From: Candidatus Zhuqueibacterota bacterium
Lineage (GTDB): Bacteria; Zhuqueibacterota; Zhuqueibacteria; Oceanimicrobiales; Oceanimicrobiaceae
Assembly: GCA_029262035.1 (NCBI GenBank)
Contig: JAJDAE010000296.1
Coordinates: 182-64,181 of the forward strand
Length of the DNA stretch: 64,000 nucleotides
Reading direction: 5' to 3'
The notes below the pieces were generated by a model. That model was given only the letters and a program-made list of their open reading frames with translations. It did not search any database and was not told the DNA's origin. Position numbers and translations under genes: made by a program. The stretch's first letter is position 1. The number at the start of each line of letters is the position of its first letter. Shown in pieces: positions 17,840-57,236 of this stretch.

Positions 17840-18496
17840 TTAAACATGATCTTTAACTTTGTCCCAATCTGCAAGAAACTGTTTCAAACCGATATCAGTC
17901 AAAGGATGGTTAAACAATTGGTCGAAAACTTTATAAGGCATTGTTGAAATATCAGCGCCAATTAATGCAGCCTCGACAAGATGCAAAGGGTGCCGTAGAC
18001 TTGCTGCAAGAATTTCAGTTTCATAACCATAGTTGTCATAAATAATTCGGATATCACGGATAATATCCATCCCTACGCCACTGATGTCATCAACACGCCC
18101 AACAAACGGACTGATTAAAGTCGCACCGGCTTTCGCAGCCAGCCATGCCTGACTTGCGCTAAAGCACAAAGTTACGTTGGTTTTAATGCCTTCTGAGGAA
18201 AGTACCTTTACAGCTTTTAAGCCTTCCCGAATCATTGGGATTTTAATATAAACGTTTTCACTTATTTTGGCGAGTTCATGTGCTTCGTCAAGCATGCTTT
18301 TTGCATCAGTAGAAACTACTTCAGCGCTAACCGGCCCATCTACAATTTCACATATTTGTGCAATCATTTCCTTAAAAGTCCCGGCTCCTTTTTCTCTGGA
18401 AACCAAAGTGGGATTTGTTGTAACACCATCTAAAATCCCCATGCTGGCGGCTAGTTTAATTTCGTCAATGTTTGCAGTGTCTAAAAAGAACTTCAT
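17840..18496 (-). CDS. tal: Transaldolase of the fructose-6-phosphate aldolase/TalC short family
   Basis: 218 aa. Starts [13 protein letters not shown]...GVTTNPTL, as in short transaldolases. Confidence 0.8.
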
Positions 18497-18508
18497 AGTT
18501 ATACCTCG

Positions 18509-19237: not shown

Positions 19238-20037
19238 TAACTTGAAGCAGTGAGAAAAATTTGAAGTGTGAATAAGCTAACCGAAAGCCCTACGAGAAGA
19301 TGATCCCTTATCGCAAAATTTAACTTCCGATAAGATGAACGGCGGATACCCGCTAAATAATTTCTCGACTCCATTGCAATTGCGAGTTCTTCGGCTCTTT
19401 GGATGGATGATATTACAAGAGGTAAAATCATTGCTCCAATATTTCGCACTCTTTGTGTTAGTTTTACGTTAAGGGATATACCGCGCGAAAGTTGAGCGTT
19501 TTTCAACCTTTCCACTTCGGCAATAAGAATGGGTATAAAGCGCAACGTCAAAGTTAGCATTAAAACAAATTCCTGAACGGGCAATTTGATTTTCTTTAAC
19601 GGACTTAGAAGTTTTTCCAATCCGTCAGTCAGGTCAAGCGGCGAAGTAGTAAAAGTTAACAAACCGGTTAGTAAAATCAACAATGCAAACCTTGCAGAAA
19701 ACAATGTACCGTTTTCTAATCCTTCTTTTGAAATTGAGAAAATTTTAAAATCGAGTAAAACGACACCTTGCGTAAAAAAAGAGTGTATCATAAAAGTGAA
19801 TAGAACAAACCATAAAAATGGCTTCAAATTTTTTGTAAATACAGATAAAGGAATATTTGTAAAATAAATTCCTGAAAAAACCAATATCGAAAAAAGAATC
19901 AAAGAACCGGCTGTATTAACAGCCAGCAAAGCTGTCATTAAAAACAAACTTGCTATAATTTTACTCCTTGGGTCACAACGATGGACGATACTTTTACCAG
20001 TATAAAATTGTCCGAGTATTATATCTTTCAAGGCCAT
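19237..20037 (-). CDS. ecfT: Energy-coupling factor transporter transmembrane component (CbiQ/EcfT)
   Basis: 266 aa polytopic membrane protein. It has the conserved ARG-containing coupling-helix region (LKNAQLSRGI). Confidence 0.65.
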   Translation of the reverse strand: MALKDIILGQFYTGKSIVHRCDPRSKIIASLFLMTALLAVNTAGSLILFSILVFSGIYFTNIPLSVFTKNLKPFLWFVLFTFMIHSFFTQGVVLLDFKIFSISKEGLENGTLFSARFALLILLTGLLTFTTSPLDLTDGLEKLLSPLKKIKLPVQEFVLMLTLTLRFIPILIAEVERLKNAQLSRGISLNVKLTQRVRNIGAMILPLVISSIQRAEELAIAMESRNYLAGIRRSSYRKLNFAIRDHLLVGLSVSLFTLQIFLTASS

Positions 20038-20221
20038 AGTTTTTGAAGTAAAATCAGCAAGTAATATAAAACATTTCTTAAAAAAATCAAATGAAAAGAT
20101 AGCATTTATCTTTCCGGGAATTTATAGGCACTAAAAATTGTTTTAAAGAAAAACAGGAACTATTTAATCAATCGAATTTTTAATAAATTTAACATTATGG
20201 TGCTCAAACCAATATTTACTA

Positions 20222-20250
20222 TTGACTTTTTGTAAACATTAGGCTATACT
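20222..20250 (+). promoter_or_regulatory. Sigma70-type promoter (TTGACT-17 bp-TATACT) driving the CTD-protein operon
   Basis: Seen directly in the sequence: TTGACT at 20222-20227, a 17-nt spacer, and TATACT at 20245-20250. It lies about 220 nt upstream of the 20473 start. A second TTGACA-N17-TTAAAT motif sits at about 20370-20398. Confidence 0.45.
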
Positions 20251-20472
20251 TCGTGTAGCTTAAAAATCAGAACATTTATCTTCGTGTAATTCCTCGTAAT
20301 ATGGTCGAGGGAGTCCCCACCAACAAACCTTAAATTTGTTGTCACCACTGACGCATGTAATATATTAAGCTTGACAATGTAAATAACGATTGTTAAATTT
20401 TAGCCTTAACTTTTTGCATTCCAGTGAGCCAATCACAAGACCGATAACCTAAAATATTTTGTCTAAGATCCT

Positions 20473-22614
20473 ATGACTTTAAAGCCTTGTCACCTCATAC
20501 CTTTTGTCCTTCTAATTTTCATATTTCTCAGCAACTCACTCCATGGTCAAAAAAGGTCTAATTCCAATGCGCTAAATGTAGATGATGATTCCAAATTTAC
20601 AACTACCGGGAGTATCGGGTTGACCATATCCAACTTTGGAACATTTGGTGACGGTTTTGCAATTCAGGCACCTGTAGATCAACCATCTTGTGAATATCCT
20701 CGGGGTTCCGGTATAGAGCATCTCTTTGTTGGCGGACTCTGGGTAGGCGGTAAACGTGATAATGGCACAATTTTGGTTACGACCGGCGCAAGAGATATTC
20801 CGTCACTGCGCGATATTGCGGCTGGTTTTGAGTTCACTAATTCGGATGATCCAAACGATGTCGTCCTCGAGCGTTCCAGTATTATAGATAACCCGTTTTT
20901 TGATCCGAATGCTATCAGCCACCAGGATTTTATTTCGGACTTTACTGACTCGAATGTTGTAGTACCCGGTACTACAATTCGAATCCCTCAGCACACGCCC
21001 ATAAATGTTTCTGTACACCTTGAGACTTATGCCTGGAATTTTCCCTTTGCTGATGCATTCGTCATTTTTAATTACACCATTAAGAATGATAGCAAAGAAA
21101 GGTTAAACGATGTTTACATTTCACTCTGGGCAGATATGGTAGTACGAAATACAAACATCACACCACCAAGGGTTGGCGCCCCGTTTTTTCAAAATGTCGC
21201 CAACGGCTGGCTAGATTCACTGAATATGGCCTACTCATATGATTTTGATGGCGATCCCGGCTTCACTGACACCGGCTTATACATCGGATTAAAACATCTT
21301 GGTGCAACTCCCCAGGTTGGAGATACAACCTACCAAAACAAAGCAGATTACAACGCCTGGCTCTTCCGTGATTCCAGTGACCCTGTGCTTTTTTCACCCC
21401 AAACAGACATCGACAGTTATTTAAAACAGGAACGCCCCCTACCTCCGCTTCTGATTGATACCGTGATCAAAGGGCAGAGAGGTAATTTTATGTCTTTAAT
21501 TACGACGGGACCTTTTGAAAAAATCGATCCGGACTCTTCAATAAATGTGGTCTTTGCGATTATTACCGCAGGTAAATCGGGTAACGATCCCAATACCTCC
21601 GACTCTTTTCAAAATAGAGAAAACTTATTCACCAATGCCTTTTGGGCACAGACCGCCTATGATGGCGAAGATCGAAATGGTAATAATGTTTTAGACCTGG
21701 GCGAAGATTTAAACCGTGATGGCCAGATTGACCGTTATATTCTGCCAACGCCGCCAAACACACCGCGTATCAAAGTTATACCAGCCCAGAATAAGGTGAC
21801 CGTTTATTGGGACAAATCTGCTGAAGAATCCATAGATTTCATCAGTGGCAAAAAAGATTTTGAAGGATACAAATTTTACCGCACCAAGCTTGCTGAAGAT
21901 TTGCCGGGCAGAGATTTCTTCTCATCATTCTCTCTAATAGCCGAGTTTGATTCGGTAAATGGCATCGGCCTTGATACCGGGTTAGACTTTGTCCGGCTGC
22001 AAGAACCGGTCACCTTTGATGAAGTTGTGCTAAATCCGTTTACAGGCGAAGAAGAAATATTGTTCTACTATTATAAATTTGAAAATACCGATCTGCTGAA
22101 CGGCTGGCAGTACGGTTATTCCGTTACCGCATTTGATGGTGGTGACCCGGAAATAAACCTGGGCAGTCTGGAAAGCAGTAAATTATCAAATGTGGTTCGT
22201 GTTTTCCCCGGTTCGCCAACAATGGAAACCCAAAATGCTGCGGCTCCACAGCAAAAGATAAAAGTTGGGGTATATCCTAATCCGTATCGTGCGCAAGGCA
22301 CCTGGGATGGTAACCTGGAAAGAGAACGTAAGCTATATTTCTTCAATTTACCGGCAGATTGCGAAGTACGAATTTTCACATTGGGCGGTGACTTGGTTAA
22401 CAAATTTGAACATCATGGCAACTCTTATACCGGCGATGATATTCGCTGGTTTGAACAATTCTCCAGAGGCGACAGAGTTTTTGCCGGCGGAGAGCATGCT
22501 TGGGATCTTGTTACTCAGGATGATCAGGCAATTGCTTCCGGTTTATATTTTTATACTGTAAAGGATTTCAATACAGGCAAAATTCAAAGAGGCAAGTTTT
22601 TGGTAATTAAATAA
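20473..22614 (+). CDS. Secreted protein with a T9SS/FlgD-Ig-like C-terminal sorting domain; function unknown
   Basis: It has a signal peptide and an internal FN3-like segment (TPRIKVIPAQNKVTVYWD...GYKFYRT). The C-terminal roughly 90 aa (VYPNPYRAQ...ASGLYFYTV...GKFLVIK) match the T9SS C-terminal sorting-domain pattern. Confidence 0.6.
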   Translation: MTLKPCHLIPFVLLIFIFLSNSLHGQKRSNSNALNVDDDSKFTTTGSIGLTISNFGTFGDGFAIQAPVDQPSCEYPRGSGIEHLFVGGLWVGGKRDNGTILVTTGARDIPSLRDIAAGFEFTNSDDPNDVVLERSSIIDNPFFDPNAISHQDFISDFTDSNVVVPGTTIRIPQHTPINVSVHLETYAWNFPFADAFVIFNYTIKNDSKERLNDVYISLWADMVVRNTNITPPRVGAPFFQNVANGWLDSLNMAYSYDFDGDPGFTDTGLYIGLKHLGATPQVGDTTYQNKADYNAWLFRDSSDPVLFSPQTDIDSYLKQERPLPPLLIDTVIKGQRGNFMSLITTGPFEKIDPDSSINVVFAIITAGKSGNDPNTSDSFQNRENLFTNAFWAQTAYDGEDRNGNNVLDLGEDLNRDGQIDRYILPTPPNTPRIKVIPAQNKVTVYWDKSAEESIDFISGKKDFEGYKFYRTKLAEDLPGRDFFSSFSLIAEFDSVNGIGLDTGLDFVRLQEPVTFDEVVLNPFTGEEEILFYYYKFENTDLLNGWQYGYSVTAFDGGDPEINLGSLESSKLSNVVRVFPGSPTMETQNAAAPQQKIKVGVYPNPYRAQGTWDGNLERERKLYFFNLPADCEVRIFTLGGDLVNKFEHHGNSYTGDDIRWFEQFSRGDRVFAGGEHAWDLVTQDDQAIASGLYFYTVKDFNTGKIQRGKFLVIK

Positions 22615-22759
22615 CTATTGAGGACTTCAAGCGTAGTGCGACGTGCAATATATCTTCGCCCACGCTCCGCGTAAATTTCCAAAAGGAGGTGAATGCCGGG
22701 CAACATTTTATACTCAAATTAACCCATTCCATTAAATCTCTAACTCAGGAGAGAGGATT

Positions 22760-25630
22760 ATGAGAAAATTGTTATTGCCAATCTTTATTTTGGCTATGTT
22801 AACTTCAAGTTTTTTGTTTGCGCAAGATCATATAATTGTAACAGAATTTGTAGTAACCCCGACTGCGGGAGAATTTGTAGAAATTTATAACCCGACGGAT
22901 GCTGCCATCGACTTGAGTAATTACTATATTACCGATGCAACATTTGCCGGCGGCGAAACCTATTACTACAAAATTGTAGAAGGAAATGGCGGAGGCGGAA
23001 CATTTAACGATTTCAACGCACGTTTCCCTGATGGCGCGACAATAGCTCCAGGGGAATTCCAAACGATATCTCTACCAGGAAGTGATGCATTTTTTGGCGA
23101 GTACGGCATAAACCCAACCTATGAGCTCTACGAAGATGGCACAGAAGCAGATGGGGTACCGGACATGCGGGATGCCACACCGGGCAGCATTGCGAACCAA
23201 GATAACTCCGATGGTCGGCCTAGCGGATTTTCCGGCGGAGAAGTAGCCATCTTGTATTATTGGGACGGTACCAGTGACTTAGTTAAAGATGTGGATTATG
23301 TCCTCTGGGGTGATAAGGCCGAAGCCGTCGACAAAACCGGCGTAACCATCGATGGCCCAGACGCGGATAGTGACGGTTCGACATACGCCGCAGAAACGGC
23401 CATAGCTGACCAATATGTCGTCAATGCTGACAACGATGATGATGCCAACCCTCATGATTCTGGTATGTCAGCACAACGCCGTTTAGATGTTGAAGATGTA
23501 GAAAACTGGCTCGGCGGTAACGGACTGACCGGACATGATGAAACCAGTGAGAACTCCTCCTGGAAAGGTGGAATCTGGAGTATTAATGAGCCAGCAACAC
23601 CCGGCTACCGGGCGCTTGGCAAAAACTCTGCAGCAGACAGTTTAACCATAGCTGATATAAATTTCATTCGTGCAGACAGCATTGGTACAGGTGCTACAGG
23701 TGCTAACGAAGATTCTCCCTTCCTCGGCGACACACTGACTGTAACCGGCATTGTAATGCATGGAACACGCGAAATAAACCTTGGCGCACGCTGGGGAACT
23801 TTTATGCAGGATGAACGCGGCGGCCCTTGGAGTGGTTTTTTTGTAATACAGAATGATTCCACGGTTGGCGGTACCCTGCTCTCCGCAGCGCAAGCTGGCG
23901 ACAAACTAAAAATGACCGGCATTGTCGGCGAATTTCCAGCAAACGCCAATAGGCAAAGCATTTCCCAATTTATTTTAATTACCGATCCGGTAACCCCGGT
24001 TGAATTTGTCGATTTTGGTTTACCAACTCCGGAACCGATTCTGCTTACTCCCGGTGACCTTGGCGCAACCGGTTCCTCAGAAGACCCAACACTGACCGAA
24101 CGCTGGGAAAGTACTCTGGTACGTTTTGAAGGTTTGACTGTTTTAAGTAATTTTTCTGGCCAGCCCGGCAATATTATGACAGCAGGTGATGAAACCGGTA
24201 CTATTGCCCTCGATGATTATTTTGCCGGACTCAGGACTTTCTTGGATAACAACGCAGGCGTTTGGCCTGGCTTCCCCGCCGGCACCAAGATCAATGTCAA
24301 CGGTTATGTCCGTGACGTTATTACCGGTGGACAGGGACGTACTACGATCAACCCTGTCAGCTTTGATGCAATTGAAACAGCTTCTTCACCTCCGGCAATT
24401 AGCAATATCGCTCGGAATCCGGTTGCGGTAACATCAGCAGATGCTGTCGTTGTTTCAGCCACCATCACAGATGCACAGACTTCAGTCGCAAACGCAGAGG
24501 TCAATTACAGAGTTGAAGGCGGCGCTTTCCAAGCTGTTGCTATGGCAGACGCTGGCAGTGATACCTGGGAAGGTACAATTCCTGCACAAGCAGACGGCGC
24601 ATTAATTGAATATTTTCTAACTGCAGTAGATACGGAAGGTGATAACACCACCTCACCTGGTGATACTTCATCTTCTAAACTATTCTATTTTGTTAGAGAT
24701 GCTGGTTTAGCCATTTTTGACTTGCAATTTACCCCATTTGGTGACGGCAACTCAAGTTATAGTAACTTGGATGTAACTGTTAGCGGTGTTGTAACCTCAG
24801 ATTCTTCTGATTTTTCATTCTACTTTATTCAGGATGGTACGGACGCCTGGAGCGGTATTGACGTACAAGACAATATAAACAATGTTAAATTAGGCGATAA
24901 CGTGACAATTACCGGTACGGTCCGTGAACGTTTTAATGAAACCCAAATCCACCAGGTAACCAATGTCACTGTAAACAGCACTGGCAATACCGTACCCGGC
25001 CCTGTAGTCGTTCAAACCGGCGATTTAAATACAGGTTCGGCAACGGCTGAGCAGTGGGAAGGAATGTTTGTACGAGTGGAAAACGTAACTGTCGTCAACG
25101 AGTTCCCGGATGGAGCTCCTGGTTTTGGCGAATTTACGGTAGACGACGGATCTGGCCCACTACGGGTTGACGACCTGGCGCCTGGCTTCGCCGGACAGGT
25201 GGGAGCCGATACTACTTTCAAATTGGATGATGTCATTGCATCCATCAGCGGCATACAATATTTCTCTTTCGGAAATCACAAATTAATACCGAGAAACGAT
25301 GCTGACGTGATGATCTTGCCGGTTTCCGTCGAGGACAATGATCTTCTTCCTCTCACATTTGCACTTGCTCAAAACTACCCGAATCCGTTTAACCCGGAAA
25401 CGACCATTAACTTCCAGGTACCGGAACAGAGTGATGTGAAAATTGAAGTATTCAATATCCTCGGCCAACGTGTCAGGACTCTGGTTAATAAGCAAATAGC
25501 CGCGGGCACCTACACAATCCAGTGGAGAGGCGCAAACGATGCTGGCCTTTCGGTTTCCTCTGGTGTTTATATTTACAAAATGCAAGCCGACAATTTTGTA
25601 AAAGTACAAAAGATGTTGTTCTTGAAATAA
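22760..25630 (+). CDS. Lamin-tail-domain (LTD) containing secreted protein with a T9SS C-terminal domain
   Basis: It has a signal peptide and an N-terminal LTD motif (IIVTEFVVTPTAGEFVEIYNPTDAAIDLSNYYITD). Multiple Ig-like repeats follow. The C-terminus is a canonical T9SS CTD (NYPNPFNPETTINF ... SGVYIYKMQ...KMLFLK). Confidence 0.65.
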   Translation: MRKLLLPIFILAMLTSSFLFAQDHIIVTEFVVTPTAGEFVEIYNPTDAAIDLSNYYITDATFAGGETYYYKIVEGNGGGGTFNDFNARFPDGATIAPGEFQTISLPGSDAFFGEYGINPTYELYEDGTEADGVPDMRDATPGSIANQDNSDGRPSGFSGGEVAILYYWDGTSDLVKDVDYVLWGDKAEAVDKTGVTIDGPDADSDGSTYAAETAIADQYVVNADNDDDANPHDSGMSAQRRLDVEDVENWLGGNGLTGHDETSENSSWKGGIWSINEPATPGYRALGKNSAADSLTIADINFIRADSIGTGATGANEDSPFLGDTLTVTGIVMHGTREINLGARWGTFMQDERGGPWSGFFVIQNDSTVGGTLLSAAQAGDKLKMTGIVGEFPANANRQSISQFILITDPVTPVEFVDFGLPTPEPILLTPGDLGATGSSEDPTLTERWESTLVRFEGLTVLSNFSGQPGNIMTAGDETGTIALDDYFAGLRTFLDNNAGVWPGFPAGTKINVNGYVRDVITGGQGRTTINPVSFDAIETASSPPAISNIARNPVAVTSADAVVVSATITDAQTSVANAEVNYRVEGGAFQAVAMADAGSDTWEGTIPAQADGALIEYFLTAVDTEGDNTTSPGDTSSSKLFYFVRDAGLAIFDLQFTPFGDGNSSYSNLDVTVSGVVTSDSSDFSFYFIQDGTDAWSGIDVQDNINNVKLGDNVTITGTVRERFNETQIHQVTNVTVNSTGNTVPGPVVVQTGDLNTGSATAEQWEGMFVRVENVTVVNEFPDGAPGFGEFTVDDGSGPLRVDDLAPGFAGQVGADTTFKLDDVIASISGIQYFSFGNHKLIPRNDADVMILPVSVEDNDLLPLTFALAQNYPNPFNPETTINFQVPEQSDVKIEVFNILGQRVRTLVNKQIAAGTYTIQWRGANDAGLSVSSGVYIYKMQADNFVKVQKMLFLK

Positions 25631-25647
25631 ATACTTAAATGAGTATC

Positions 25648-25685
25648 CTCCGGGTTTTAAAGACCCGGAGGATGTTTTTAAATCC
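25648..25685 (+). terminator. Rho-independent terminator
   Basis: A perfect 10-bp stem (TCCTCCGGGT / ACCCGGAGGA) with a 7-nt loop, followed by TGTTTTT. It lies immediately after the stop of the LTD protein. Confidence 0.6.
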
Positions 25686-25777
25686 CTCTGAAAAAAATGC
25701 GGGCTATAAAGTAACTCATGAATTATTTACAAATTATCCACGGTGTTTTAAGTGGTGACAAAATTATTCAAAAAAGA

Positions 25778-27166
25778 ATGAAAACCATATCAACCATTGT
25801 ATTAATTTTATCAGCAGTTTTAGTTCTATCAAGCTGCTCAAAAGACATCAGTAATAATCCGTTGCAAAACAAAGCGCCTCGGACTTTTCTTTCAATTTTC
25901 TCGGATAATCAGCTTAATTCCGTAATCAGCAAACAAACATTTAATTGGTGGGGTGATGACCCGGACGGAATCGTCACGGGCTTCATTTACACTTTCAACC
26001 CAAATGCACAAAACATTGCTGCATGGGATTCCGCCGATGTAAATTCTGATTGGATGTTTACTACGGATACGCAGGAAACATTTACTTTAACCTTGGCAGG
26101 TTCTGACACCGTTTACACTTTCTGGGTAAAAGCCATCGACGACGAGGGCGCTGCTGACCCGGAAGGCGCTATCCAGGAATTCCGTATTATCAACACAAGG
26201 CCGGTAGTAGAATTCCCGGTAGGAACAGATGTTCCTGAAACCACATTTACAGTGGCTACTTTTGTATGGAGCGGTACAGATTTAGATGGTGACGATACCA
26301 TCGCCAAATACCAATACACATTGGATGACACATCTGCAAGCGATGCTTGGATAGATATTCCCGCAAACGAGAATTCCGTCACGTTGACGGCAGAAGATGG
26401 TTTGACGCAAGGTGAGCATGTATTTTTTCTACGCGCCATTGACCTTGCCGGAACCTCAAGTAAAATCATTCCCATGCCGCAGAGTGAAAATCAAATTTGG
26501 TTCGTTAAAGAACCAACAAGCAATTTCCTGATCATAGACGATTATAATATATTAAACAATACCGGCGATTTTTATAATACGATTATTCGATCCATCGCCG
26601 GGTCGGCAGATGTATGGGACATCAAGAGCAACGGCCGGGCTTTGGAACCACCTACCTCCCTGGCATTCCTTAAAACGCTACAACTGTTCGACACGGTTTT
26701 CTGGTATGGCGACACCGCACCAAATCTTGAAAAAGCTCAATCCAGTTTGCCCGATTACGTTGAAAGCGGCGGCAAAGTACTTATGACAACCTCGTTCATG
26801 GAATTCAGCAGCAATCTGGGAGACCCACTGGATTTTTCGCCTGCAGATAGTCTTGGCAGTAAAATCAGCAGAATAACCAGAAACCAAATAGTTTTACCAA
26901 CCGCCGAATACTCAACACAAGGATTTCCTGAATTGAAAGTGGACGCAGCGCTGATTCCGAACATATTTCCGGTTGTACCTAAAATCAGCTCGGAAACTTT
27001 GTATACTTTACCTGCGAATGCGGCAAGATGGGAAGGCACACCCCCGATGGCGGTGATTAATAGTGCCCATACTTTTGTTTTCTTTGGGCTGCCTATGGCC
27101 TCTTTAAACGGTAATGGTACAGTCACGCAACTTTTTGAAATTATTCTTAATAATGTTTTACAATAA
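25778..27166 (+). CDS. Hypothetical lipoprotein
   Basis: It has a lipobox (LVLSSC) at the internal Met, so 25778 is the probable start and the first in-frame ATG at 25718 is less likely. It carries Ig-like or beta-rich repeats. I recognise no homology. Confidence 0.45.
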   Translation: MKTISTIVLILSAVLVLSSCSKDISNNPLQNKAPRTFLSIFSDNQLNSVISKQTFNWWGDDPDGIVTGFIYTFNPNAQNIAAWDSADVNSDWMFTTDTQETFTLTLAGSDTVYTFWVKAIDDEGAADPEGAIQEFRIINTRPVVEFPVGTDVPETTFTVATFVWSGTDLDGDDTIAKYQYTLDDTSASDAWIDIPANENSVTLTAEDGLTQGEHVFFLRAIDLAGTSSKIIPMPQSENQIWFVKEPTSNFLIIDDYNILNNTGDFYNTIIRSIAGSADVWDIKSNGRALEPPTSLAFLKTLQLFDTVFWYGDTAPNLEKAQSSLPDYVESGGKVLMTTSFMEFSSNLGDPLDFSPADSLGSKISRITRNQIVLPTAEYSTQGFPELKVDAALIPNIFPVVPKISSETLYTLPANAARWEGTPPMAVINSAHTFVFFGLPMASLNGNGTVTQLFEIILNNVLQ

Positions 27167-27256
27167 TGGCTTTTAAGACTCTGTTATTGCAACAAATTTC
27201 TTCAACTTTAGTTTTGGCAATACAAACAAATTTAAATTAGATGTAAGGTGATTCTT

Positions 27257-30124
27257 ATGAAGCTTATTAGCCGTACTCTCATAGCTTTTTTCTTGTTGAT
27301 ATTTGTTATTAGTCCCGGTTTTACACAAACCAGAGGAATCATAAAAGGCCGAATAACAGACAAGGCAACCGGCGAGGCTCTCCCAGGTGTGAACGTTCTT
27401 GTAACCGGCACTTATTATGGCGCTGCCACAGACTTCGATGGAAATTTTACTATTTCCAACGTCAGTCCGGGAACCTACACTGTTGAAATTTCAATGATAG
27501 GCTATAAAAAAATCCAAAACAATGGCGTAAAGGTAGTTGTAGGCGAAACCACAACGCTTAACTTCTCCGCAGAGGAGTCCGTTTTGGCACTGGGTCAGGA
27601 CGTTGTAGTTATAGGCAAGAAACCCCTCTTTGACATAGAAGAAACCTCAAGCAAAAAGACTATTTCCAGCAAAGAAATCGATGTCGAAGTTGTCGAATCG
27701 GTCAGAGACATCATTGTTAACCAGGTTGGAGTAACAAAAACAAATGACGCAATTCATATTCGTGGCGGACGGTCGCATGAGAATGCTTATTTAGTCGATG
27801 GCATCTCCGTTCAGGATCCACTTTCAGGAACGGGTTTCGGTTTGGAGCTTAGCACCGATGCCATTGAGGAACTGGAAGTAATCACGGGCGGGTTCAACGC
27901 CGAGTATGGCGAAGCAATGTCCGGAATTATCAACGTTAAAACAAAAGAGGGTACGCCGAAATATAAAGGCAGCTTCACTTATAAACGGGATCATTTTGGC
28001 AGTTTTAACCCCGACGCATTTGTCGTTGGTACTTTTAGCGACAAAAACAATCAAAGTTTTAATACAGATATTTTCCAGGCAAGCCTGAGCGGACCTGAGC
28101 CGCTTACACAAAAAATCCTACCTGCACTTGGCATTAAATTGCCGGGAACTATAAATGTTTTCGGTAACTTAAATATGCTGACGACTGATACTTATTTGGG
28201 AAAAACCGCTGATCAGTTATTTTCGTCAACTTTTAATGGAACGGACTTTGCCCCAAAGCAACAAAACAGTTGGTCTGGATTGTTGAAGTTAACTTACAAA
28301 GTTTCACCAACTTTCAAACTTGTGTTGTCGGGTAACCAATCAATCTCCATAAATCAGAACACACAATCCCTGCAAACCAATCTTGAATTTGTGGAACCAC
28401 GTCCGGGGTTTCCTTTTAATTACCAGAACAATTTAGATAATTTCAATACATTTACTCATGTCAATAAACAGATGACCCTGGCAATAACACATACATTAAA
28501 TAATAAAACTTTTTATGATTTAAAATTCTCTCGATTTTTCAGCAATTTGAGAAGTGACGTCAATGGCAAACACTGGACTGAAATGGAAGAACCACAGGAC
28601 ATCGTGACCCAGCCAATCCAGTATTTCTTCAATTCAGATAGTTCAATTGTTTCTGTATTACCCGGCGATGGTTTCTGGGATACTGGCAATGGCCAAAATT
28701 GGCACGACCATTATATTGAAGAATACACCATGAAATTCGATATGACCAGGCAAATTGGCAACGACGCCCATGAATTGAAAGGCGGCATTCAGACAACTTT
28801 TGGCGAAATGCAAATGGTAGATATTGTCAAGCCCTGGTTTGGCGGACTCGGTTTAAATAATGATATTTATAAGGTTAGTCCGGCGTATGGCAGTATGTAT
28901 CTGCAGGATCAACTCCGCTTTAAAGGCTTGGTTGCCAATGTAGGGTTGCGTTTGGATTACTGGTTTCCCGGAAAATTTGTAGAAGATGCCATCGATAACC
29001 CAGATATAGTTACCTTGTCTGCGGACACTCGCCGTCAATTCAAAGAAAGTACCAACGTTTTATTTGGAAGAAGATATCGCAGTCGCCTCAGCCCCAGAAT
29101 AGGCATCTCACATCCCATTTCAGATAACCAGATGTTATTCTTTTCTTACGGCCATTTTTCCAAACGCCCAAAACCACAATTCCTTTACGCTAAATTGGGT
29201 GCAAACAGCGCCAAGTCTTCATTTCAAAAATTTGGTAACCCGAATCTAAATTATGAAACCACCGTGGCCTACGAATTTGGTTTGCGCCACAAGTTTAGTG
29301 ATGATGACGTTCTAACGTTTACTGGTTTCTACCGGGACATTTTTGACTATGTAACAACGGTAAATTTTGGCGGTAGCGGCAGACTTTCCGGGCGCTCACT
29401 TACCACCTATCTCAATTTGGATTATGCACGCTCCCGGGGTATAGAGGCAGAATATCGCACCAGACCGAGTAAGTATTTATCCGGTTCCATCAGTGGTACA
29501 TACAGTATTGCCACCGGTAAAAGTTCATCCCCCGACGACGCATTTCTGGTAGCACGAGGAACTTTGAATGAACGCCCGATCACAGAAGATTTACTCATTT
29601 GGGACCGGCCCTGGCAGGTCAGCGCACTGGTTAATTTCAATGTCGCTAAAGGCCAGGCGCCTACTATTTTGGGCTTTCAAATGCCGGATAACTGGAATTT
29701 CAATGCCAGGGCTTTTGCCCAGGCTGGCAAGCGATATACACCGCAATTTGCTACCGGTTTGTTTCTACCAAACGGCAGACCCCAATATGATGACGATTTG
29801 GATTTAAATGGCGAGCCTGATGATCCCAATGGCGCTGTAGGGCAGAATTGGTTCTGGATCAATCTGGCCTTCGAAAAATATTTTCAGATTGTGGGTTTGC
29901 AATATACTTTCATGATAGAGGTGGAAAATCTTTTAGACCGAAAGAATCCCCAAATCATTAACCCGGTAACCGGAAGCGCTTATGAGTTCGGCGACCCAAC
30001 CCCGACTTCGTTCAACGATCCCTTGTTCCCTGAAACACAGGCGCCGATAAGTCCATTTCCATTTAACCCGGCAAGATACTTAACTCAGCGAAATGTAAAA
30101 GTAGGACTTTCAGTGAGATTTTAA
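27257..30124 (+). CDS. TonB-dependent outer-membrane receptor with an N-terminal carboxypeptidase-regulatory-like domain
   Basis: The N-terminal CarbopepD_reg motif (GRITDKATGEALPGVNVLV...TDFDGNFTI) is followed by a plug domain (IHIRGGRSHENAYLVDGISVQDP), a large barrel and a C-terminal F. The track ORF starts at a GTG at 27248. The ATG at 27257 is the more likely start. Confidence 0.8.
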   Translation: MKLISRTLIAFFLLIFVISPGFTQTRGIIKGRITDKATGEALPGVNVLVTGTYYGAATDFDGNFTISNVSPGTYTVEISMIGYKKIQNNGVKVVVGETTTLNFSAEESVLALGQDVVVIGKKPLFDIEETSSKKTISSKEIDVEVVESVRDIIVNQVGVTKTNDAIHIRGGRSHENAYLVDGISVQDPLSGTGFGLELSTDAIEELEVITGGFNAEYGEAMSGIINVKTKEGTPKYKGSFTYKRDHFGSFNPDAFVVGTFSDKNNQSFNTDIFQASLSGPEPLTQKILPALGIKLPGTINVFGNLNMLTTDTYLGKTADQLFSSTFNGTDFAPKQQNSWSGLLKLTYKVSPTFKLVLSGNQSISINQNTQSLQTNLEFVEPRPGFPFNYQNNLDNFNTFTHVNKQMTLAITHTLNNKTFYDLKFSRFFSNLRSDVNGKHWTEMEEPQDIVTQPIQYFFNSDSSIVSVLPGDGFWDTGNGQNWHDHYIEEYTMKFDMTRQIGNDAHELKGGIQTTFGEMQMVDIVKPWFGGLGLNNDIYKVSPAYGSMYLQDQLRFKGLVANVGLRLDYWFPGKFVEDAIDNPDIVTLSADTRRQFKESTNVLFGRRYRSRLSPRIGISHPISDNQMLFFSYGHFSKRPKPQFLYAKLGANSAKSSFQKFGNPNLNYETTVAYEFGLRHKFSDDDVLTFTGFYRDIFDYVTTVNFGGSGRLSGRSLTTYLNLDYARSRGIEAEYRTRPSKYLSGSISGTYSIATGKSSSPDDAFLVARGTLNERPITEDLLIWDRPWQVSALVNFNVAKGQAPTILGFQMPDNWNFNARAFAQAGKRYTPQFATGLFLPNGRPQYDDDLDLNGEPDDPNGAVGQNWFWINLAFEKYFQIVGLQYTFMIEVENLLDRKNPQIINPVTGSAYEFGDPTPTSFNDPLFPETQAPISPFPFNPARYLTQRNVKVGLSVRF

Positions 30125-30128
30125 TTTT

Positions 30129-31115
30129 ATGAAAAATATAACTTATTCTTTATTAGCACTTTTCCTTCTGGCAAATCATCAGACCGTCCACGCACAATTA
30201 ATTCCTGTTTTAGGCAGCCAACGTGCCGGTACTGCGATGGGACAATTCCTGAAGATTGGTGTAGGCGGAAGAGCAGTAGGTATGGGAGAAACTTTTGTAG
30301 CTGTAGCCAATGACGCATCAGCACTATTTTGGAATCCTGCCGGCGTGACCCAACTGGAGAAAAGTGAAATCACTTTTTCACATACTGAATGGCCGGTGGA
30401 TGTTCAGCATGAATTTTTTGGATATGTGCACAAGCTTAACGCACAGAGTTATCTTGGCGTGAGCGCAATTGTTTTGCACACGGATGATTTTGAAGAAACA
30501 ACAGAGTTCCAACCACTGGGAACGGGCAGGTTTGTATCCTTCGGAGATGCCGCCTTCGGTTTAACCTACGCGCGTAAAATGACCGACAGGTTCAGCGTAG
30601 GCTTAACGGTTAAATACATTGATGAGACTCTGGACAACCTGCATGCTAGAAATGTGTTCATAGATTTTGGTACATTTTTCTGGACCGGATTTGGCTCTTC
30701 ACGTTTCGCAATTGCAGTCACCAACTTCGGAACAAACATAGAGCCATCGGGAACTTTGCTACTTCGGGATGGCACAAAAATAACAGATTTCCAAGATTTT
30801 TCTCCGCCAACCATTTTCAGAATTGGTCTGGCAACGGAAGTTATAGACAATAGTTCGCACATGTTAACTACTTCAGTACAACTCAACCATCTAAACGACA
30901 ATGCAGAAAATTTTAATTTTGGATTGGAATACTGGTGGAACAAAATATTGGCGCTCAGAGGTGGTTACCGTCTTAATGTAGATGAAGAGTCCCTGGCATT
31001 TGGCGCCGGCTTAGCGCTTCCTCTACAACTAATTGACCTTAACCTGGATGTATCTTACACAGATTTCGGACAATTGGGAAGCGCGAGCAGATTCTCGGCA
31101 AGTATTAAATTTTAA
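30129..31115 (+). CDS. PorV/PorQ-family-like outer-membrane beta-barrel protein
   Basis: It has a signal peptide and the conserved N-terminal motif GMGETFVAVANDASALFWNPAGV, as I recall it for PorV/PorQ (and UPF0164) family barrels. It ends in F. Its start is 4 nt after the TBDT stop. Confidence 0.45.
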   Translation: MKNITYSLLALFLLANHQTVHAQLIPVLGSQRAGTAMGQFLKIGVGGRAVGMGETFVAVANDASALFWNPAGVTQLEKSEITFSHTEWPVDVQHEFFGYVHKLNAQSYLGVSAIVLHTDDFEETTEFQPLGTGRFVSFGDAAFGLTYARKMTDRFSVGLTVKYIDETLDNLHARNVFIDFGTFFWTGFGSSRFAIAVTNFGTNIEPSGTLLLRDGTKITDFQDFSPPTIFRIGLATEVIDNSSHMLTTSVQLNHLNDNAENFNFGLEYWWNKILALRGGYRLNVDEESLAFGAGLALPLQLIDLNLDVSYTDFGQLGSASRFSASIKF

Positions 31116-31182
31116 TATCACTTAAACATTTTATTCTGAACTAACTGATCCATTTTTGTATATCAAATAGAAGACCAAACAG

Positions 31183-32235
31183 ATGAAAAATTACCTCTCG
31201 ATAATACTATTTACCGGAATTATTCTTATTACTGCTTGTGGCGGAGAAAAAATTCCCTTGCCTCAGCAACCAGAAGATGATGGCACAAGTGCAGTAAACG
31301 ACACAGTATATCTACAATTAAACCCTGTGTGGGACAATGCCAACGGCTACGACTTCATCGAACCATCCGATATACTGGTAGGTCGGGAGCCTCTCCTGTA
31401 TATCGCGGATACCGGCAATGATCGCATTCTAATGCTGGATCTCGCTGGAAATATCCTAGGCGCTTCACAATCTATCGAAAACCCGGTCGCTCTCACTCAA
31501 GACTCAAAACTAAACCTTTTGGCCGTGACAAATAGTAATAAAATTTACAGAATTGATCTTGTCTCAAAACAGCACGACATTGCGAACATACCGGTTGAAC
31601 TGGTTTTTGAAGAAATAGACAATCCGGATCGCCGTTACACAGGTATTTCTTCAATCTTAGGGGCATTGGGAGGGCAGGTTGTTATTGGCTACTATGTCAC
31701 AGCATCAGGCGACCAAAAACGGGATAACCAGGTACTTCTGTTCCCGGAAGACTTTGATGTTAATGTTCCGGATGCAATAAGCCTTGAACCGGAAGGTCTC
31801 GGCATTCAATCTGCTTCAGACCCTAGCGGTATTACGACATTACGTGATTTTAATATTGATTTCATATTTTGTATGGTTGGCCAAAATTCATTTAAAGTGC
31901 AGTGGATAACTGCCGGCGAGTTTGGCTTTATCCCTCGTCTGAACCCTGCCAATGGGAGCTTTGACCTTTTCGAACCAGGTAAATTTACATCTCCCGAAGA
32001 CGTCGCTGTCGACGAGGAAGGTTCTATCTACGTGGTGGATGCTCAGAATGATTTTTTATATAAATTTTCTGTATCCGGCGAAGAATTGCAGTCGTTTGGC
32101 GGTTCGGGTGACGGTGAAAAGGAATTTAATCAACCAAAAGGGGTTGCAGTTTTTAACCAGACTCTTTATGTCGCTGATAGCGGAAACAACCGTATTGTTC
32201 GTTTCAAATTATCAACAGATGTATCAGAAAATTAG
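31183..32235 (+). CDS. NHL-repeat beta-propeller lipoprotein
   Basis: It has a lipobox (LITAC) and NHL repeats (YIADTGNDRILMLD, LYVADSGNNRIVRF). Confidence 0.6.
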   Translation: MKNYLSIILFTGIILITACGGEKIPLPQQPEDDGTSAVNDTVYLQLNPVWDNANGYDFIEPSDILVGREPLLYIADTGNDRILMLDLAGNILGASQSIENPVALTQDSKLNLLAVTNSNKIYRIDLVSKQHDIANIPVELVFEEIDNPDRRYTGISSILGALGGQVVIGYYVTASGDQKRDNQVLLFPEDFDVNVPDAISLEPEGLGIQSASDPSGITTLRDFNIDFIFCMVGQNSFKVQWITAGEFGFIPRLNPANGSFDLFEPGKFTSPEDVAVDEEGSIYVVDAQNDFLYKFSVSGEELQSFGGSGDGEKEFNQPKGVAVFNQTLYVADSGNNRIVRFKLSTDVSEN

Positions 32236-32249
32236 AAGGAAAGTACTTC

Positions 32250-33986
32250 TTACTTCATCAGCAAAATTTTCTCAGTTTGAATAGTACCGCCGGCAGCCAA
32301 CTTGACAAAATAAACACCGCTAACCAACTGAGCCGCATCAAAAACTAAACTGTAGTCCCCCATTTCCCTGAAGTCATCCAACAGAATCCCCACTTCGCGG
32401 CCAAGTACATCGAATATTCTTATCGTAACATGACTGCCATGTACCACTGAATATCGAATCGTCGTAGAGGGATTGAAAGGATTGGGGTACGCAGGATAAA
32501 GAAAAAATTGTCGCGGTGTTTCAACCACGAAATCACCTTCAACACTAACCGGCCTTACTCCTGCAATATCTATTATCCTTGGTAAATGGTCAGAGGCATT
32601 ATTTGTATCCTGAGCCAACAGCCCGGCTGTACTCAACTCGTCGGCTGACATGGCCAATGTGTTCAAAACATAATGATTTCCAAGCTCAAGGATGCTGTCA
32701 GTAAACAGAAAATAATCCAGTTTACCCGGGCTGAAGGCACTGTTGTCATTACGCCAGGTGTATCCCATTCTGGCAGAAGTCTGTCTTGAAAATAGATCGG
32801 TCAGCGACGAGCCATCCCAATCCGGCGCAAAATCCTCACCATTATTGCTCTCATCACTTATATCGCCGTGCGTAAGGGTTCGTATCTGTAGTGAAGACCC
32901 TACAAGATTAAAATCTCCCAGATGAACCATCGGTGTATTTTCCGGAAGTTGAAATGGACCGCTTCCATCTCGCCACTCACGCAAGCGCATAATGATTTCA
33001 TCAGCATCTCGCTGCCGTGAAACATCATTGGCGCAGCAGCTCAAATGTGAATTCATCACCAGCAAATTTACACCCAATTCATCCGCCGTATTAAGCAACA
33101 CCACCATGGTACGCCCTGAGTTCGTCAATATTGCGGAATTAAGAATCGGGAAACGGGATACAACCATGTTGCCGTTTCCGAGCATGAGCGAATGAAAGTT
33201 TGAAGGTTGTAGCCACTTGCTCATCAATATTTCCACATCAGGTGCATCTCGCTGTTCCTGAAAAGCCATTATGTCTGGGCTCAGTGCTTTTATTATCCGT
33301 TCAAAAGCAGGCTGCCGATTGGCATTGCTAAGTCCACTGCCAAGGGTATTATAAGATAAAATACGCAAATGCTCAGGTCGCGATCTCGCTAAAGGAATTG
33401 CATCAGGTGGCTCAACCGGGGTTGTATCAATAATGTACTGAGCTCCACCAATATTGTCAGGCAAATAGTCGGCTTCATCTGAAGTAGCAAGCACTATAGC
33501 CAGGGTATCGGCGATTTGTGTGTTGTTAAGCGTAAGTGCCTGGCTAAAAAGACCAACTGCTATTTCAAAATCACGCGAAGTAATTGTTGGTGCACTGCGT
33601 AAGGTTAAATCATTTTGCCTGATTGCAACTGGCACCTGGTTTTGCCAGATAGAACCACTTCTACATCCAAAACACCATTCGATATCAGCGCCGATTCCAC
33701 GAAAGCTTCGACCAGTATTGCTATTATTGTCGACATCAATATAAAGCCTGATTCCATTAAAATCTTGCAATAGCTGCTCACTGCCATTAAATCCAAACTT
33801 CAAAAACAAAAAATCATTATCATTTGTAATTTTCAATCCGGAGAAATCTTCATCAAACCCATCCCCATCCGGGTCATCAAACTCAATTCCAATATTTTCC
33901 CAATCTTGAAAAAGACCATCAATGGTAATAGGATCACCTGCATAGGCTTCAACAAAAAAACAAAAAATGATAATAAATATGAACAT
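32250..33986 (-). CDS. Secreted endonuclease/exonuclease/phosphatase (EEP) family protein with a T9SS C-terminal domain
   Basis: It has a signal peptide and an N-terminal extra domain of about 190 aa. A central EEP domain follows (LRILSYNTLG ... MAFQEQ). The C-terminal CTD is YPAYPNPFNPSTTIRY...SGVYFVKL...KILLMK. Confidence 0.7.
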   Translation of the reverse strand: MFIFIIIFCFFVEAYAGDPITIDGLFQDWENIGIEFDDPDGDGFDEDFSGLKITNDNDFLFLKFGFNGSEQLLQDFNGIRLYIDVDNNSNTGRSFRGIGADIEWCFGCRSGSIWQNQVPVAIRQNDLTLRSAPTITSRDFEIAVGLFSQALTLNNTQIADTLAIVLATSDEADYLPDNIGGAQYIIDTTPVEPPDAIPLARSRPEHLRILSYNTLGSGLSNANRQPAFERIIKALSPDIMAFQEQRDAPDVEILMSKWLQPSNFHSLMLGNGNMVVSRFPILNSAILTNSGRTMVVLLNTADELGVNLLVMNSHLSCCANDVSRQRDADEIIMRLREWRDGSGPFQLPENTPMVHLGDFNLVGSSLQIRTLTHGDISDESNNGEDFAPDWDGSSLTDLFSRQTSARMGYTWRNDNSAFSPGKLDYFLFTDSILELGNHYVLNTLAMSADELSTAGLLAQDTNNASDHLPRIIDIAGVRPVSVEGDFVVETPRQFFLYPAYPNPFNPSTTIRYSVVHGSHVTIRIFDVLGREVGILLDDFREMGDYSLVFDAAQLVSGVYFVKLAAGGTIQTEKILLMK

Positions 33987-33996
33987 TGCGATTATC

Positions 33997-35298
33997 CTAT
34001 TTTAGCAGAAGCAATTTTTTTGATATGCTCTTCCCTCCCGCACTCAATGTATATACATAAATGCCGCTGCCTAATTCCTTGCCGTCAAAAATAACTTGAT
34101 ATTCTCCGGAGTTCTTATGTTCATCTGCCAATCTCGCTACTTCCTGCCCCAACAAATTAAAAACAGTCAGAGTTACAAAAGATGATTTGGTAAGCGAATA
34201 TTTTATTATTGTTGCGGGATTAAATGGGTTGGGAAAATTCTGTTGCAAACTAAATGATACAGGCTCTTGACTTCCTTCATTCACAGAAGTCGGGAATCCA
34301 AAGGCAAAATCGGAAACTACCGGCAGATGATCTGATGCCTTGTGAAGGGCATCTGCAACGCTGTCCGGAACAGAAAAGTTCGTTCCGGCATTGATAGCAA
34401 GGTTGAAGTGATCACTATCATTGCCAAACGCTTTATATGTTGCAGGCAGGATATCGATGCCACCACCACTTCTCATCGCATCTGAAACCAATATTATGTC
34501 AAAGCGATCATCCAACCCGCCGGTGGCACCGCCGCCAAAAGAGGTCGTTCTGGTAGATTGCGTATGAATAGAAATAAAAAAATTATTATTGTTCCAATTC
34601 CCGGCTTGGTTTATGGGATCAAACAACCGACCGTCGTTATCAGCCTGGTTTTCAGTTAATTTTATAAAAGCCGCTTCAGATGCAGATCTCATGTTGTAAT
34701 CGCCAACGAGCATAAAGTTTGAGTTAGAGGGCAACCCATTTAAATGGTTCCGAAGAAAAGTAGCCTGGTTTAACCTCTGTTGCTGATCTGAAGCCGACGA
34801 CCCGGCTTTCAAATGTGTAGAATAAATTGTGAACTCATGGCCAAATGCAAATAGCACATATTCCATTATATCACGAACGCCACTTCGGAGATTATTGGGA
34901 AAGGCCAGTAAAGTTACTTTGTCCTGATTATAAAAAAGCCCGCTATCCGTGTCTGGACCATCAAAAAAAGGCGCTGCCTGGTAAACAGCTTGTTTATGAT
35001 TCATGACCTGATTTAAAAGTGTCGAGACAGCTGCCTGACTTTCGATTTCCTGGACTACAAGAATATCCGGAGCCACAGCTTCGATGACTTTCCTCAAATC
35101 CCCAATCCGAGTTGCACCGTCTGCACTTGGAAATTTGAGTATATTATAGCTGGCGATCCGCAAGCTATCAACTTGGGCTTGAGTTTTGTGTACTGGAAAC
35201 AATACCAGACAGAACATTAGTAAGATAAGTTTAACCTGACATCCGTTATATTTAGAAAAAAAACTCATTGTTATCCTTTGTTTTATGTGAATTACCAA
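33997..35298 (-). CDS. Secreted EEP-family nuclease/phosphatase with a T9SS C-terminal domain; paralog of the previous gene
   Basis: EEP domain (LRIASYNILKF ... ILVVQEIES) plus a CTD (NFPNPFNPATIIKYS...SGIYVYTL...KLLLLK). The signal peptide starts at the internal Met (MSFFSK...). Confidence 0.7.
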   Translation of the reverse strand: MVIHIKQRITMSFFSKYNGCQVKLILLMFCLVLFPVHKTQAQVDSLRIASYNILKFPSADGATRIGDLRKVIEAVAPDILVVQEIESQAAVSTLLNQVMNHKQAVYQAAPFFDGPDTDSGLFYNQDKVTLLAFPNNLRSGVRDIMEYVLFAFGHEFTIYSTHLKAGSSASDQQQRLNQATFLRNHLNGLPSNSNFMLVGDYNMRSASEAAFIKLTENQADNDGRLFDPINQAGNWNNNNFFISIHTQSTRTTSFGGGATGGLDDRFDIILVSDAMRSGGGIDILPATYKAFGNDSDHFNLAINAGTNFSVPDSVADALHKASDHLPVVSDFAFGFPTSVNEGSQEPVSFSLQQNFPNPFNPATIIKYSLTKSSFVTLTVFNLLGQEVARLADEHKNSGEYQVIFDGKELGSGIYVYTLSAGGKSISKKLLLLK

Positions 35299-37490: not shown

Positions 37491-37491
37491 G

Positions 37492-37830: not shown

Positions 37831-37836
37831 TTAACT

Positions 37837-57231: not shown

Positions 57232-57236
57232 TTTCT

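Follow-up and report, generated by a model that had tools for sequence, protein, structure and literature searches.

A Multi-Phylum Type IX Secretion and TonB-Dependent Transport Cassette with a Purine-Type Riboswitch: A Candidate System for the Use of Extracellular DNA in a KSB1-Related Bacterium

Organization of the Locus

The window analyzed here is a 64,000-nucleotide stretch of contig JAJDAE010000296.1 from a Candidatus Zhuqueibacterota bacterium, and its nearest named relatives belong to candidate division KSB1. Positions 20473-35298 hold eight genes, with the coordinates claimed in an earlier reading of the sequence (the original prediction), which had seen in them a system for scavenging extracellular DNA. 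Six of the genes (P1 to P6) lie on the plus strand, separated by spacers of 4-145 nucleotides, and the other two (P7 and P8) lie on the minus strand, convergent onto P6. The locus encodes a putative TonB-dependent transporter, an outer-membrane barrel, two lipoproteins and four proteins that are probably exported by the type IX secretion system (T9SS), and it is preceded by a riboswitch-like leader. Its features, with those of the leader, are the following:

20222..20250, plus strand: promoter-like site (TTGACT, 17 nucleotides, TATACT), 5' of the riboswitch, from a consensus scan only
20262..20367 (core 20279-20353), plus strand: purine-family aptamer, predicted 2'-deoxyguanosine-II type, in the 5' leader of P1 (RF00167, RF03165)
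20473..22614, plus strand: P1, secreted protein of 713 residues (beta-supersandwich, calcium loop, FN3 domain, divergent sorting-domain-like tail)
22760..25630, plus strand: P2, T9SS cargo (lamin-tail module, OB-Ig-OB core, sorting domain)
22823-23629, plus strand: lamin-tail module of P2 (residues ~22-290), an N-terminal extension of ~290 residues
23630-25354, plus strand: core of P2 (OB/DUF5689-like module, Ig/CBM56-like domain, second OB/DUF5689-like module)
25376-25615, plus strand: sorting domain of P2, T9SS type A
25718..27166 (likely true start 25778), plus strand: P3, surface lipoprotein (lipobox ..LSSC; Ig/FN3-like repeats, alpha/beta C-domain)
27248..30124, plus strand: P4, TonB-dependent transporter (CarboxypepD_reg, Plug, TonB-box-like motif)
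30129..31115, plus strand: P5, PorV/PorQ-family (FadL-like) outer-membrane barrel (NF033709)
31183..32235, plus strand: P6, NHL-repeat beta-propeller lipoprotein (lipobox ..ITAC)
32250..33986, minus strand: P7, T9SS cargo (N-domain of 200 residues without family, EEP domain, sorting domain)
33997..35298 (likely true start ATG 35268, giving 423 residues), minus strand: P8, T9SS cargo (EEP and sorting domains)

Four C-terminal sorting domains of the T9SS had been predicted, and three of them, in P2, P7 and P8, score above the cut-offs of the hidden Markov models (42.7, 41.7 and 41.6 bits against 23 for TIGR04183; 33 to 38 bits against 27 for PF18962). The fourth protein, P1, is recognized by neither model and carries a probable divergent domain, described below. 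The rest of the predicted inventory is present: one protein with a lamin-tail domain (P2), two endonuclease/exonuclease/phosphatase (EEP) enzymes (P7 and P8), a TonB-dependent receptor (P4), a PorV-like barrel (P5) and two lipoproteins with recognizable signal sequences (P3 and P6). The lamin-tail profile match and the EEP catalytic residues, on which the original prediction had been made to depend beforehand, were both found.

Conservation of the Six-Gene Cassette

A scan with a P4 alignment, taking one genome per species, identified P4 relatives encoded in more than 561 genomes, from which the best 80 loci were kept. The neighbourhoods were then surveyed by tblastn in 83 loci, composed of these 80 and three of four neighbourhoods fetched via P1; the source contig of the window (L001) and a locus duplicating a genome among the 80 (L004) were left out. 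The order P1-P6 is unchanged in all 83 loci, which belong to KSB1, Calditrichota, Marinimicrobia, Fermentibacteria and Ignavibacteria; all six genes are found in 53 of them and the remainder are cut by contig ends. P3 keeps the third position and P6 is the sixth gene in nearly all loci, and the four neighbourhoods fetched via P1 contain the identical six genes in identical order. Because this order recurs in 83 loci of other genomes, the clustering is far beyond chance, and P1-P6 are a cassette of ancient origin whose collinearity extends over five or more lineages of phylum rank. The locus had been described as an island. Its GC content is 0.40-0.46 inside the span against 0.375-0.435 in the adjacent flanks, so that composition is unremarkable, and this, together with the synteny of P1-P6 in 83 loci, led to the rejection of a genomic island.

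P2 and the EEP Proteins

Residues 22-106 of P2 match the lamin-tail family (PF00932) with 36.2 bits against a gathering score of 34.3, and orthologues match it with E values down to 2e-13. Downstream of this extension, residues 674-809 match positions 1-144 of the ExeM/NucH family (NF033681, E 4e-13), as do all four P2 orthologues tested (E 4e-13 to 3e-16), whether or not they contain the lamin-tail module. Among 29 P2 homologues, 18 match the OB fold PF01336, 17 a CBM56-like Ig domain and seven DUF5689 (PF18942), which covers either the first or the second OB module in individual homologues and is above its gathering score in three of the four homologues scanned singly (P0311, P0317 and P0319). 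An AlphaFold (AF2) model of the core, with a predicted local distance difference test (pLDDT) score of 88.7, retrieved through Foldseek the anticodon-binding OB folds of Asp- and Lys-tRNA synthetases, CBM56 and the Ig domain of a type IX cargo protein. From these profile and structure matches P2 can be read as an OB module, an Ig domain, a second OB module and a sorting domain, preceded in this lineage by the lamin-tail module, and its conserved core is predicted to contain a pair of OB-fold modules resembling those of ExeM/YhcR and DUF5689. Among distant P2 homologues there are fusions with Endonuclease I or with a metallophosphatase.

In ExeM, the YhcR-like region located before the EEP domain comprises a pair of putative OB folds; nuclease activity is lost without this region but not without the lamin-tail domain (PMC6085458). 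The lamin-tail domain, initially described as DNA-binding, was found largely dispensable in the same study, which left its role open.

P7 and P8 contain EEP domains (PF03372; 43.5 and 36.7 bits, respectively, against a cut-off of 24.5), and both retain the catalytic motifs N, QE, H, GD(F/Y)N, D and SDH, as seen in their sequences and in their alignment to each other. In an alignment of 22 members of the P8 family, N52, E84, H162, D200, N202, D323 and H324 are invariant. P8 also gives weak matches to the MnuA nuclease and to the EEP half of ExeM/NucH, and one of its relatives (P0180, 469 residues) is a lamin-tail and EEP fusion; sequence searches of solved structures with P7 or P8 alone gave no match. 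The 200 N-terminal residues of P7, placed ahead of the EEP domain in this paralogue only, match no family.

A P8-type EEP gene lies directly 3' of P6 in 12 of 66 loci, in 11 Melioribacteraceae on the same strand and in one KSB1 locus that, like the window, has it on the opposite strand. In one Melioribacteraceae locus (L034) the gene after P6 encodes EEP, DUF5689 and a sorting domain in a single protein. P7-type genes are rare beside the cassette elsewhere. In one KSB1 relative, four tRNA genes (L010:15808-16285, plus strand) follow P6 directly, at the place occupied by the EEP genes in the window.

The original prediction took these genes for the parts of an ExeM-type nuclease split over one locus. 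In the usual form of the cassette, the P2 core has neither a lamin-tail module (64 of 68 loci) nor an EEP neighbour (54 of 66 loci), and both therefore seem to have been added later, in particular lineages. The split of an ExeM gene was rejected on these counts, since a P2 core devoid of any EEP domain is apparently the ancestral state.

The Transporter, the PorV-Like Barrel and P1

P4 contains CarboxypepD_reg (PF13620, 71 bits) and Plug (PF07715, 42 bits) domains, matches TonB-receptor barrel models and carries an invariant TonB-box-like motif, LALGQ(D/E)xVVIG. Its identity is 52-78% across the surveyed loci and 51-78% in an alignment of five phyla, where columns average 71% identity. The SusC/RagA model (TIGR04056) matches only its N-terminus, with 71 bits against a cut-off of 368, and no SusD-like gene was found at the locus in the Pfam search. 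P5 scores 204 bits against a cut-off of 90 with the PorV/PorQ family model (NF033709) and falls below the equivalog cut-offs of PorQ (81 against 220), PorV (76 against 250) and PorV2 (80 against 325); by its profile matches, it is a PorV/PorQ-family member of a subfamily distinct from these three.

P1 is the most conserved protein without known function in the cassette. No Pfam family matched it, and its more than 2000 homologues (47-80% identity), none of them named, are found in KSB1, Calditrichota, Marinimicrobia, Zhuqueibacterota and Eisenbacteria. The AF2 model (pLDDT 79) predicts an N-terminal beta-supersandwich, a segment resembling a calcium loop, an FN3 domain and a sorting-domain-like tail. 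The family of its N-domain comprises ~1000 clusters at 50% identity, and its paralogues are type IX cargo combined with PKD, FG-GAP or BNR repeats. The tail has a YPNPY motif, a profile-profile match to the sorting domain of the EEP family (77% probability, E 2e-5) and a weak match to the tail of PorZ, and is probably a divergent sorting domain. Its conservation is far above that of ordinary sorting domains, suggesting that it could stay bound to P5 and thereby place P1 over the transporter.

A similar row of genes is present in plasmid pRMAR01 of Rhodothermus marinus (L114, 6148-16095), which encodes an FG-GAP protein, a receptor, a P1-like protein of 1132 residues and a PorV/PorQ-family protein, after which come genes for a peptidoglycan-recognition protein and a serine hydrolase. 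The receptor is 28% identical to P4 over its full length and the PorV/PorQ-family protein is 30% identical to P5. As the trio recurs in Rhodothermus, P4, P1 and P5 look like the core of the system, and P2, P3, P6 and the nucleases like a substrate-specific periphery; the pairing of a receptor with a PorV-like barrel would then be a wider architecture that operates with other partners.

A different explanation of this conservation is that P1-P6 are a housekeeping envelope module, such as a complex for type IX sorting or attachment, or one that assembles a surface layer, for which the EEP neighbours would be merely cargo. The cassette is apparently single-copy and adjoins ribosomal genes in one genome, it includes a PorV/PorQ-family member, the P1 tail suggests stable docking rather than a cleaved signal, and the Rhodothermus trio has different partners; all of this would suit such a module. 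It is nevertheless quite improbable, because P4 has the complete Plug and the TonB-box-like motif typical of active importers, control by a purine-derivative riboswitch would be unexpected for a constitutive envelope machine, and the models of known type IX components (PorU, PorZ, PorV and PorQ) score far below their cut-offs.

The Riboswitch in the Operon Leader

The sole Rfam match across the 64 kb of the window is an aptamer located just beyond the reported span, 106 nucleotides before the P1 start and on the sense strand, that aligns with the full purine riboswitch model (RF00167) at 45.9 bits against a gathering score of 37. Within the clan, the best model is that of the 2'-deoxyguanosine-II (2'-dG-II) riboswitch (RF03165; 50.3 bits, E 1e-11 in a local search). 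In the alignment to the purine model, J2/3 reads GUCCCCACC where the general model has GUUUCUACC, so that position 51 is C instead of U; J3/1 carries a two-nucleotide insertion ('uc' ahead of ACCAC), and the loop-loop GG/CC contacts are retained. C51 and the J3/1 insertion are the defining features of the 2'-dG-II pocket (PMC6847200). The leader aptamer is assigned to the 2'-dG-II type by sequence and structure match, and its ligand would presumably be 2'-deoxyguanosine (2'-dG). In the minimum-energy fold of the leader, the 3' strand of aptamer stem P1 (CACUG) pairs with a downstream CAGUG.

In the nearest genome (L006) the same aptamer precedes the P1 orthologue (57.8 bits with RF03165), and the promoter-like TTGACTTTTTG element is also kept 5' of it. 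A covariance model built from the window aptamer and run over 84 sources found it once in the window, twice in L006 and nowhere else; these three copies are too alike to give any covariation in stems P2 and P3. The genes described 3' of known 2'-dG-II riboswitches include ComEC, endonuclease I, phospholipase D and a receiver-domain gene (PMC8872408), and the context in the window fits the class because published members precede DNA-handling genes.

The second L006 copy (L006:16638-16712, plus strand; 54.6 bits with the 2dG-II model) has U at position 51 and keeps the J3/1 insertion. It is located ~600 nucleotides 5' of genes for a CarboxypepD_reg and OMP_b-brl_4 barrel (17312-20506) and an NHL/phytase-like protein (20571-21629), and neither this aptamer nor these genes have a counterpart in the window. 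Barrels with the same two domains adjoin phosphatase genes in other genomes: PhoD and alkaline phosphatase in Rufibacter, a calcineurin-like phosphoesterase in Parabacteroides and a phosphodiesterase in a Zhuqueibacterota genome (L115:7001-11664, L116:6986-11610 and L005:2441-7396), which suggests a separate outer-membrane module for the acquisition of organophosphates.

Proposed Function

The reading favoured here, with a probability of roughly 0.55, is that the locus is a cell-surface system that captures, degrades and imports extracellular DNA under the control of a riboswitch for a purine derivative. P1-P6 would be expressed as a single transcript starting near position 20258, the leader of which would fold into a purine-family aptamer with 2'-dG-II pocket features. 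P1, P2, P7 and P8 would leave the cell by the T9SS through their C-terminal sorting domains, and P5 would hold the sorting domains of P1 and P2 beside the transporter, a docking role proposed because PorV binds sorting domains and because the P4/P1/P5 trio recurs even in Rhodothermus. P2, which in this lineage also has the lamin-tail module, would bind DNA at the surface with its two OB/DUF5689-type modules; this is suggested by homology with DdbD, the modelled DNA-binding partner of a Bacteroides transporter, and with the YhcR-like part of ExeM that is required for activity. P7 and P8, the catalytic residues of which are intact, would cut the DNA, and P4 would import fragments or nucleotides using TonB energy, with P3 and P6 as accessory surface partners. 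Intracellular breakdown would finally release deoxynucleosides, such as 2'-dG, that could feed back on the riboswitch. The scavenging idea of the original prediction is consistent with every sequence test run and survives because the lamin-tail profile, the EEP catalytic residues, the ExeM/NucH region of P2, the fused relatives and the riboswitch all agree; what falls is its framing as an island, as a split ExeM and as a system with ExeM as its nearest relative.

A bolder version of this proposal, put forward tentatively, is that P1-P6 constitute an undescribed multi-phylum machine that joins type IX secretion to TonB import, in which the PorV-like barrel permanently docks P1 and P2 in replacement of a SusD-type lid, that takes up DNA and that in the KSB1 lineage is controlled by a native 2'-dG-II-type riboswitch. 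A literature search combining KSB1, type IX secretion and TonB-dependent found no report.

Several observations weigh against a role in DNA use. Most cassettes have no adjacent nuclease, lamin-tail module or riboswitch, which makes the link to nucleic acids weaker for the cassette as a whole: no EEP gene adjoins it in the 54 loci mentioned above, the lamin-tail module is present in only four of 68 loci, all of them close KSB1 relatives, and no purine riboswitch was found in six other cassette loci scanned with Rfam. This last result, together with two metagenome pattern scans (0 and 28 matches, with no aptamers among the 28), indicates that the riboswitch is a lineage-specific layer. The evidence for nucleic acids is strongest for this lineage and the Melioribacteraceae, and for the cassette in general its main source is the OB/ExeM-type modules of P2. 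Even here, P2 itself gives no PF18942 match at E values up to 5 and remains below threshold with PF01336 (15.9-18 bits against 27). In the leader, RF03165 does not reach its gathering score of 60 bits in either the window or L006, no convincing terminator follows the CACUG/CAGUG pairing, and the leader is not conserved in L006. Compared with solved structures, the P8-family profile retrieves TDP2 and Nocturnin, which are only generic EEP relatives, so that the substrate of P7 and P8 is not readable from homology; the EEP superfamily also includes phosphatases and sphingomyelinases. Finally, P1 and P4 are very highly conserved, which is not what scavenging systems usually show.

Two further points of the same kind concern carbohydrates. 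The central domain of P2 passes the threshold of CBM56, a beta-1,3-glucan-binding family (29.7 bits against 27), and the N-domain of P1, in its AF2 model, resembles the accessory N-terminal sandwich of GH94, GH116 and GH161 enzymes, without their catalytic domain. Together with the frequency of the CBM56-like match among P2 homologues (17 of 29) and the cassettes devoid of an adjacent nuclease, lamin-tail domain or riboswitch, they would be compatible with the import of a glycan or another polymer. In that case the EEP genes, lamin-tail domain and riboswitch would have been added locally and would reveal little of what the cassette originally imported. This is considered a long shot, as there is no glycoside hydrolase, lyase or SusD gene in any locus inspected, the CBM56-like match corresponds to a small Ig-like sandwich for which the Ig domain of a T9SS cargo protein is another match, and the OB-fold and ExeM-type signals appear in all P2 orthologues tested, including those of nuclease-free loci.

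DNA could also be taken up for gene transfer instead of nutrition, the cassette being the outer-membrane step of natural transformation and the nucleases trimming the incoming DNA. In Riemerella anatipestifer, a CarboxypepD_reg receptor (RA0C_RS04915) and a DUF5689 protein (RA0C_RS04920) form a pair essential for natural transformation (PMC8459023), to which the ddb loci of Bacteroides, treated below, have been described as evolutionarily related (10.1101/2025.03.18.642099). The ComEC genes reported 3' of 2'-dG-II riboswitches (PMC8872408) point in the same direction, and the near-housekeeping conservation of P1 and P4 across phyla would fit a core machine. On the other hand, no ComEC, ComEA, ComF or DprA gene is found within the 64 kb of the window, and a purine-derivative sensor with two secreted nucleases fits degradation better than the preservation of DNA. 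To our knowledge, natural transformation has never been shown in these phyla. Transformation is thus judged unlikely as the primary role, although it is compatible with scavenging and the two are not mutually exclusive.

Nutritional use of extracellular DNA would be of consequence in the habitats concerned, since this polymer is a large reservoir of phosphorus, nitrogen and purines in sediments and waters, where KSB1, Calditrichota, Marinimicrobia and Ignavibacteria are abundant and almost none of them is laboratory-tractable. The cassette offers a concrete candidate for DNA use by these phyla, composed of an OB-fold binder, nucleases and a transporter (with a deoxynucleoside-type riboswitch in this lineage), would extend DNA-utilization loci of the Bacteroides type far beyond Bacteroidales, and suggests a new design of transporter complex in which type IX cargo is held by a private PorV-like barrel. 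It also provides a long genomic context for a riboswitch type so far known only from 12 metagenomic fragments; if the locus is indeed a DNA-uptake machine regulated by a 2'-dG-II riboswitch, a rare class known from metagenomes alone would gain a host and a physiological target.

Genes Flanking the Locus

Genes of nucleotide metabolism are present on both flanks of the locus (12182-16615, minus strand; 40971-42696, minus strand; 49133-50020, plus strand), namely purQ, purS and the genes for SAICAR synthase and adenylosuccinate lyase upstream and those for dihydroorotate dehydrogenase, its electron-transfer subunit and a MazG pyrophosphohydrolase downstream; this may be a coincidence. Right after the nuclease-type genes (35520-39084, plus strand) there is a row encoding an OPT-family oligopeptide transporter, a small PqqD-like protein and an M20 peptidase, which may be a peptide-uptake unit. 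Two open reading frames on the plus strand, 39159-40115 (318 residues) and 61439-63187 (582 residues), have no Pfam match. The window also contains an adenylate/guanylate cyclase gene (47247-48722, minus strand) and a run of signalling genes (52766-58604, plus strand) coding for a response-regulator diguanylate cyclase, two PAS histidine kinases and a sigma-54 activator.

Comparison with Known Systems

The leader shares with the 2'-dG-II class (RF03165; Weinberg 2017, as reviewed in PMC6847200, PMC5473149 and PMC8872408) the three-stem purine fold, C51, the two-nucleotide J3/1 insertion, the GG/CC contacts and the position upstream of genes acting on DNA. It differs in that the window and L006 copies score 50.3-57.8 bits and have extra nucleotides in L2 and L3, in that genes of the kind that follow it here, a transporter and type IX cassette, have not been reported for the class, and in its KSB1-like host, the 12 published members all coming from unassigned metagenomic reads (PMC5473149, PMC8872408).

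SusC/SusD loci resemble the cassette in having a TonB-dependent transporter of the CarboxypepD_reg type amid surface binding proteins and enzymes; here, in contrast, there is neither SusD nor glycoside hydrolases, and the surface partners are type IX cargo and a PorV-like barrel.

ExeM/NucH nucleases of Shewanella, Vibrio and Aeromonas contain the same lamin-tail, YhcR-like OB and EEP modules (PMC6085458; NF033681, NF033680), and in ExeM the OB and EEP parts are both essential for DNase activity (PMC6085458). In the window these modules are distributed between P2, which has no EEP domain, and P7 and P8; P2 scores far under the family cut-offs (49 against 300 and 36 against 1300), and the sorting domain is of T9SS type A, whereas ExeM relies on GlyGly-CTERM and rhombosortase.

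In the Riemerella pair too, a CarboxypepD_reg receptor is encoded next to a surface protein, there of the DUF5689 type, and genetics links the pair with the uptake of DNA. Its surface partner, unlike P2, carries DUF5017 and no type IX sorting domain, equivalents of the PorV-like barrel, P1, P3 and P6 have not been described for it, and its function is transformation, whereas no competence genes are near the cassette.

The closest known systems, by architecture rather than by sequence similarity between P4 and DdbC, are the Bacteroidota loci that combine a transporter, a DUF5689 protein and nucleases (ddbABCDEF and BT3560-3563), and not ExeM. Searches of a plasmid collection for DdbC- and DdbD-like sequences returned other barrel types only. 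The ddbABCDEF locus of B. thetaiotaomicron encodes a TonB-dependent transporter (DdbC), a DUF5689 protein (DdbD), modelled as an OB/HIN-like DNA-binding partner of DdbC, and three nucleases, and its deletion abolishes the depletion of exogenous DNA (10.1101/2025.03.18.642099). In the overlapping BT3560-3563 operon, the gene of a TonB-dependent receptor is accompanied by those of a hypothetical protein and of two lipoprotein nucleases from the EEP superfamily, one of which, BT3563, is a proven extracellular DNase (PMC8851478). Depletion of DNA by these loci has been observed in experiments (10.1101/2025.03.18.642099; PMC8851478). These loci and the one described here have in common a TonB-dependent transporter, an OB-like surface protein (of the DUF5689 type there, with DUF5689 matches among the P2 homologues here) and secreted EEP-superfamily proteins, and a logic similar to that of polysaccharide utilization, in which the polymer is bound, cut outside and imported. 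They differ in that the binder and the nuclease-type proteins are type IX cargo here and lipoproteins there, in that the binder is made here of two OB modules and an Ig domain (plus the lamin-tail module in this lineage), and in that the cassette has, in addition, a PorV-like barrel of its own, P1 and two lipoproteins and is led in this operon by a riboswitch; their hosts are Bacteroidales, while those of the cassette are KSB1, Calditrichota, Marinimicrobia, Fermentibacteria and Ignavibacteria.

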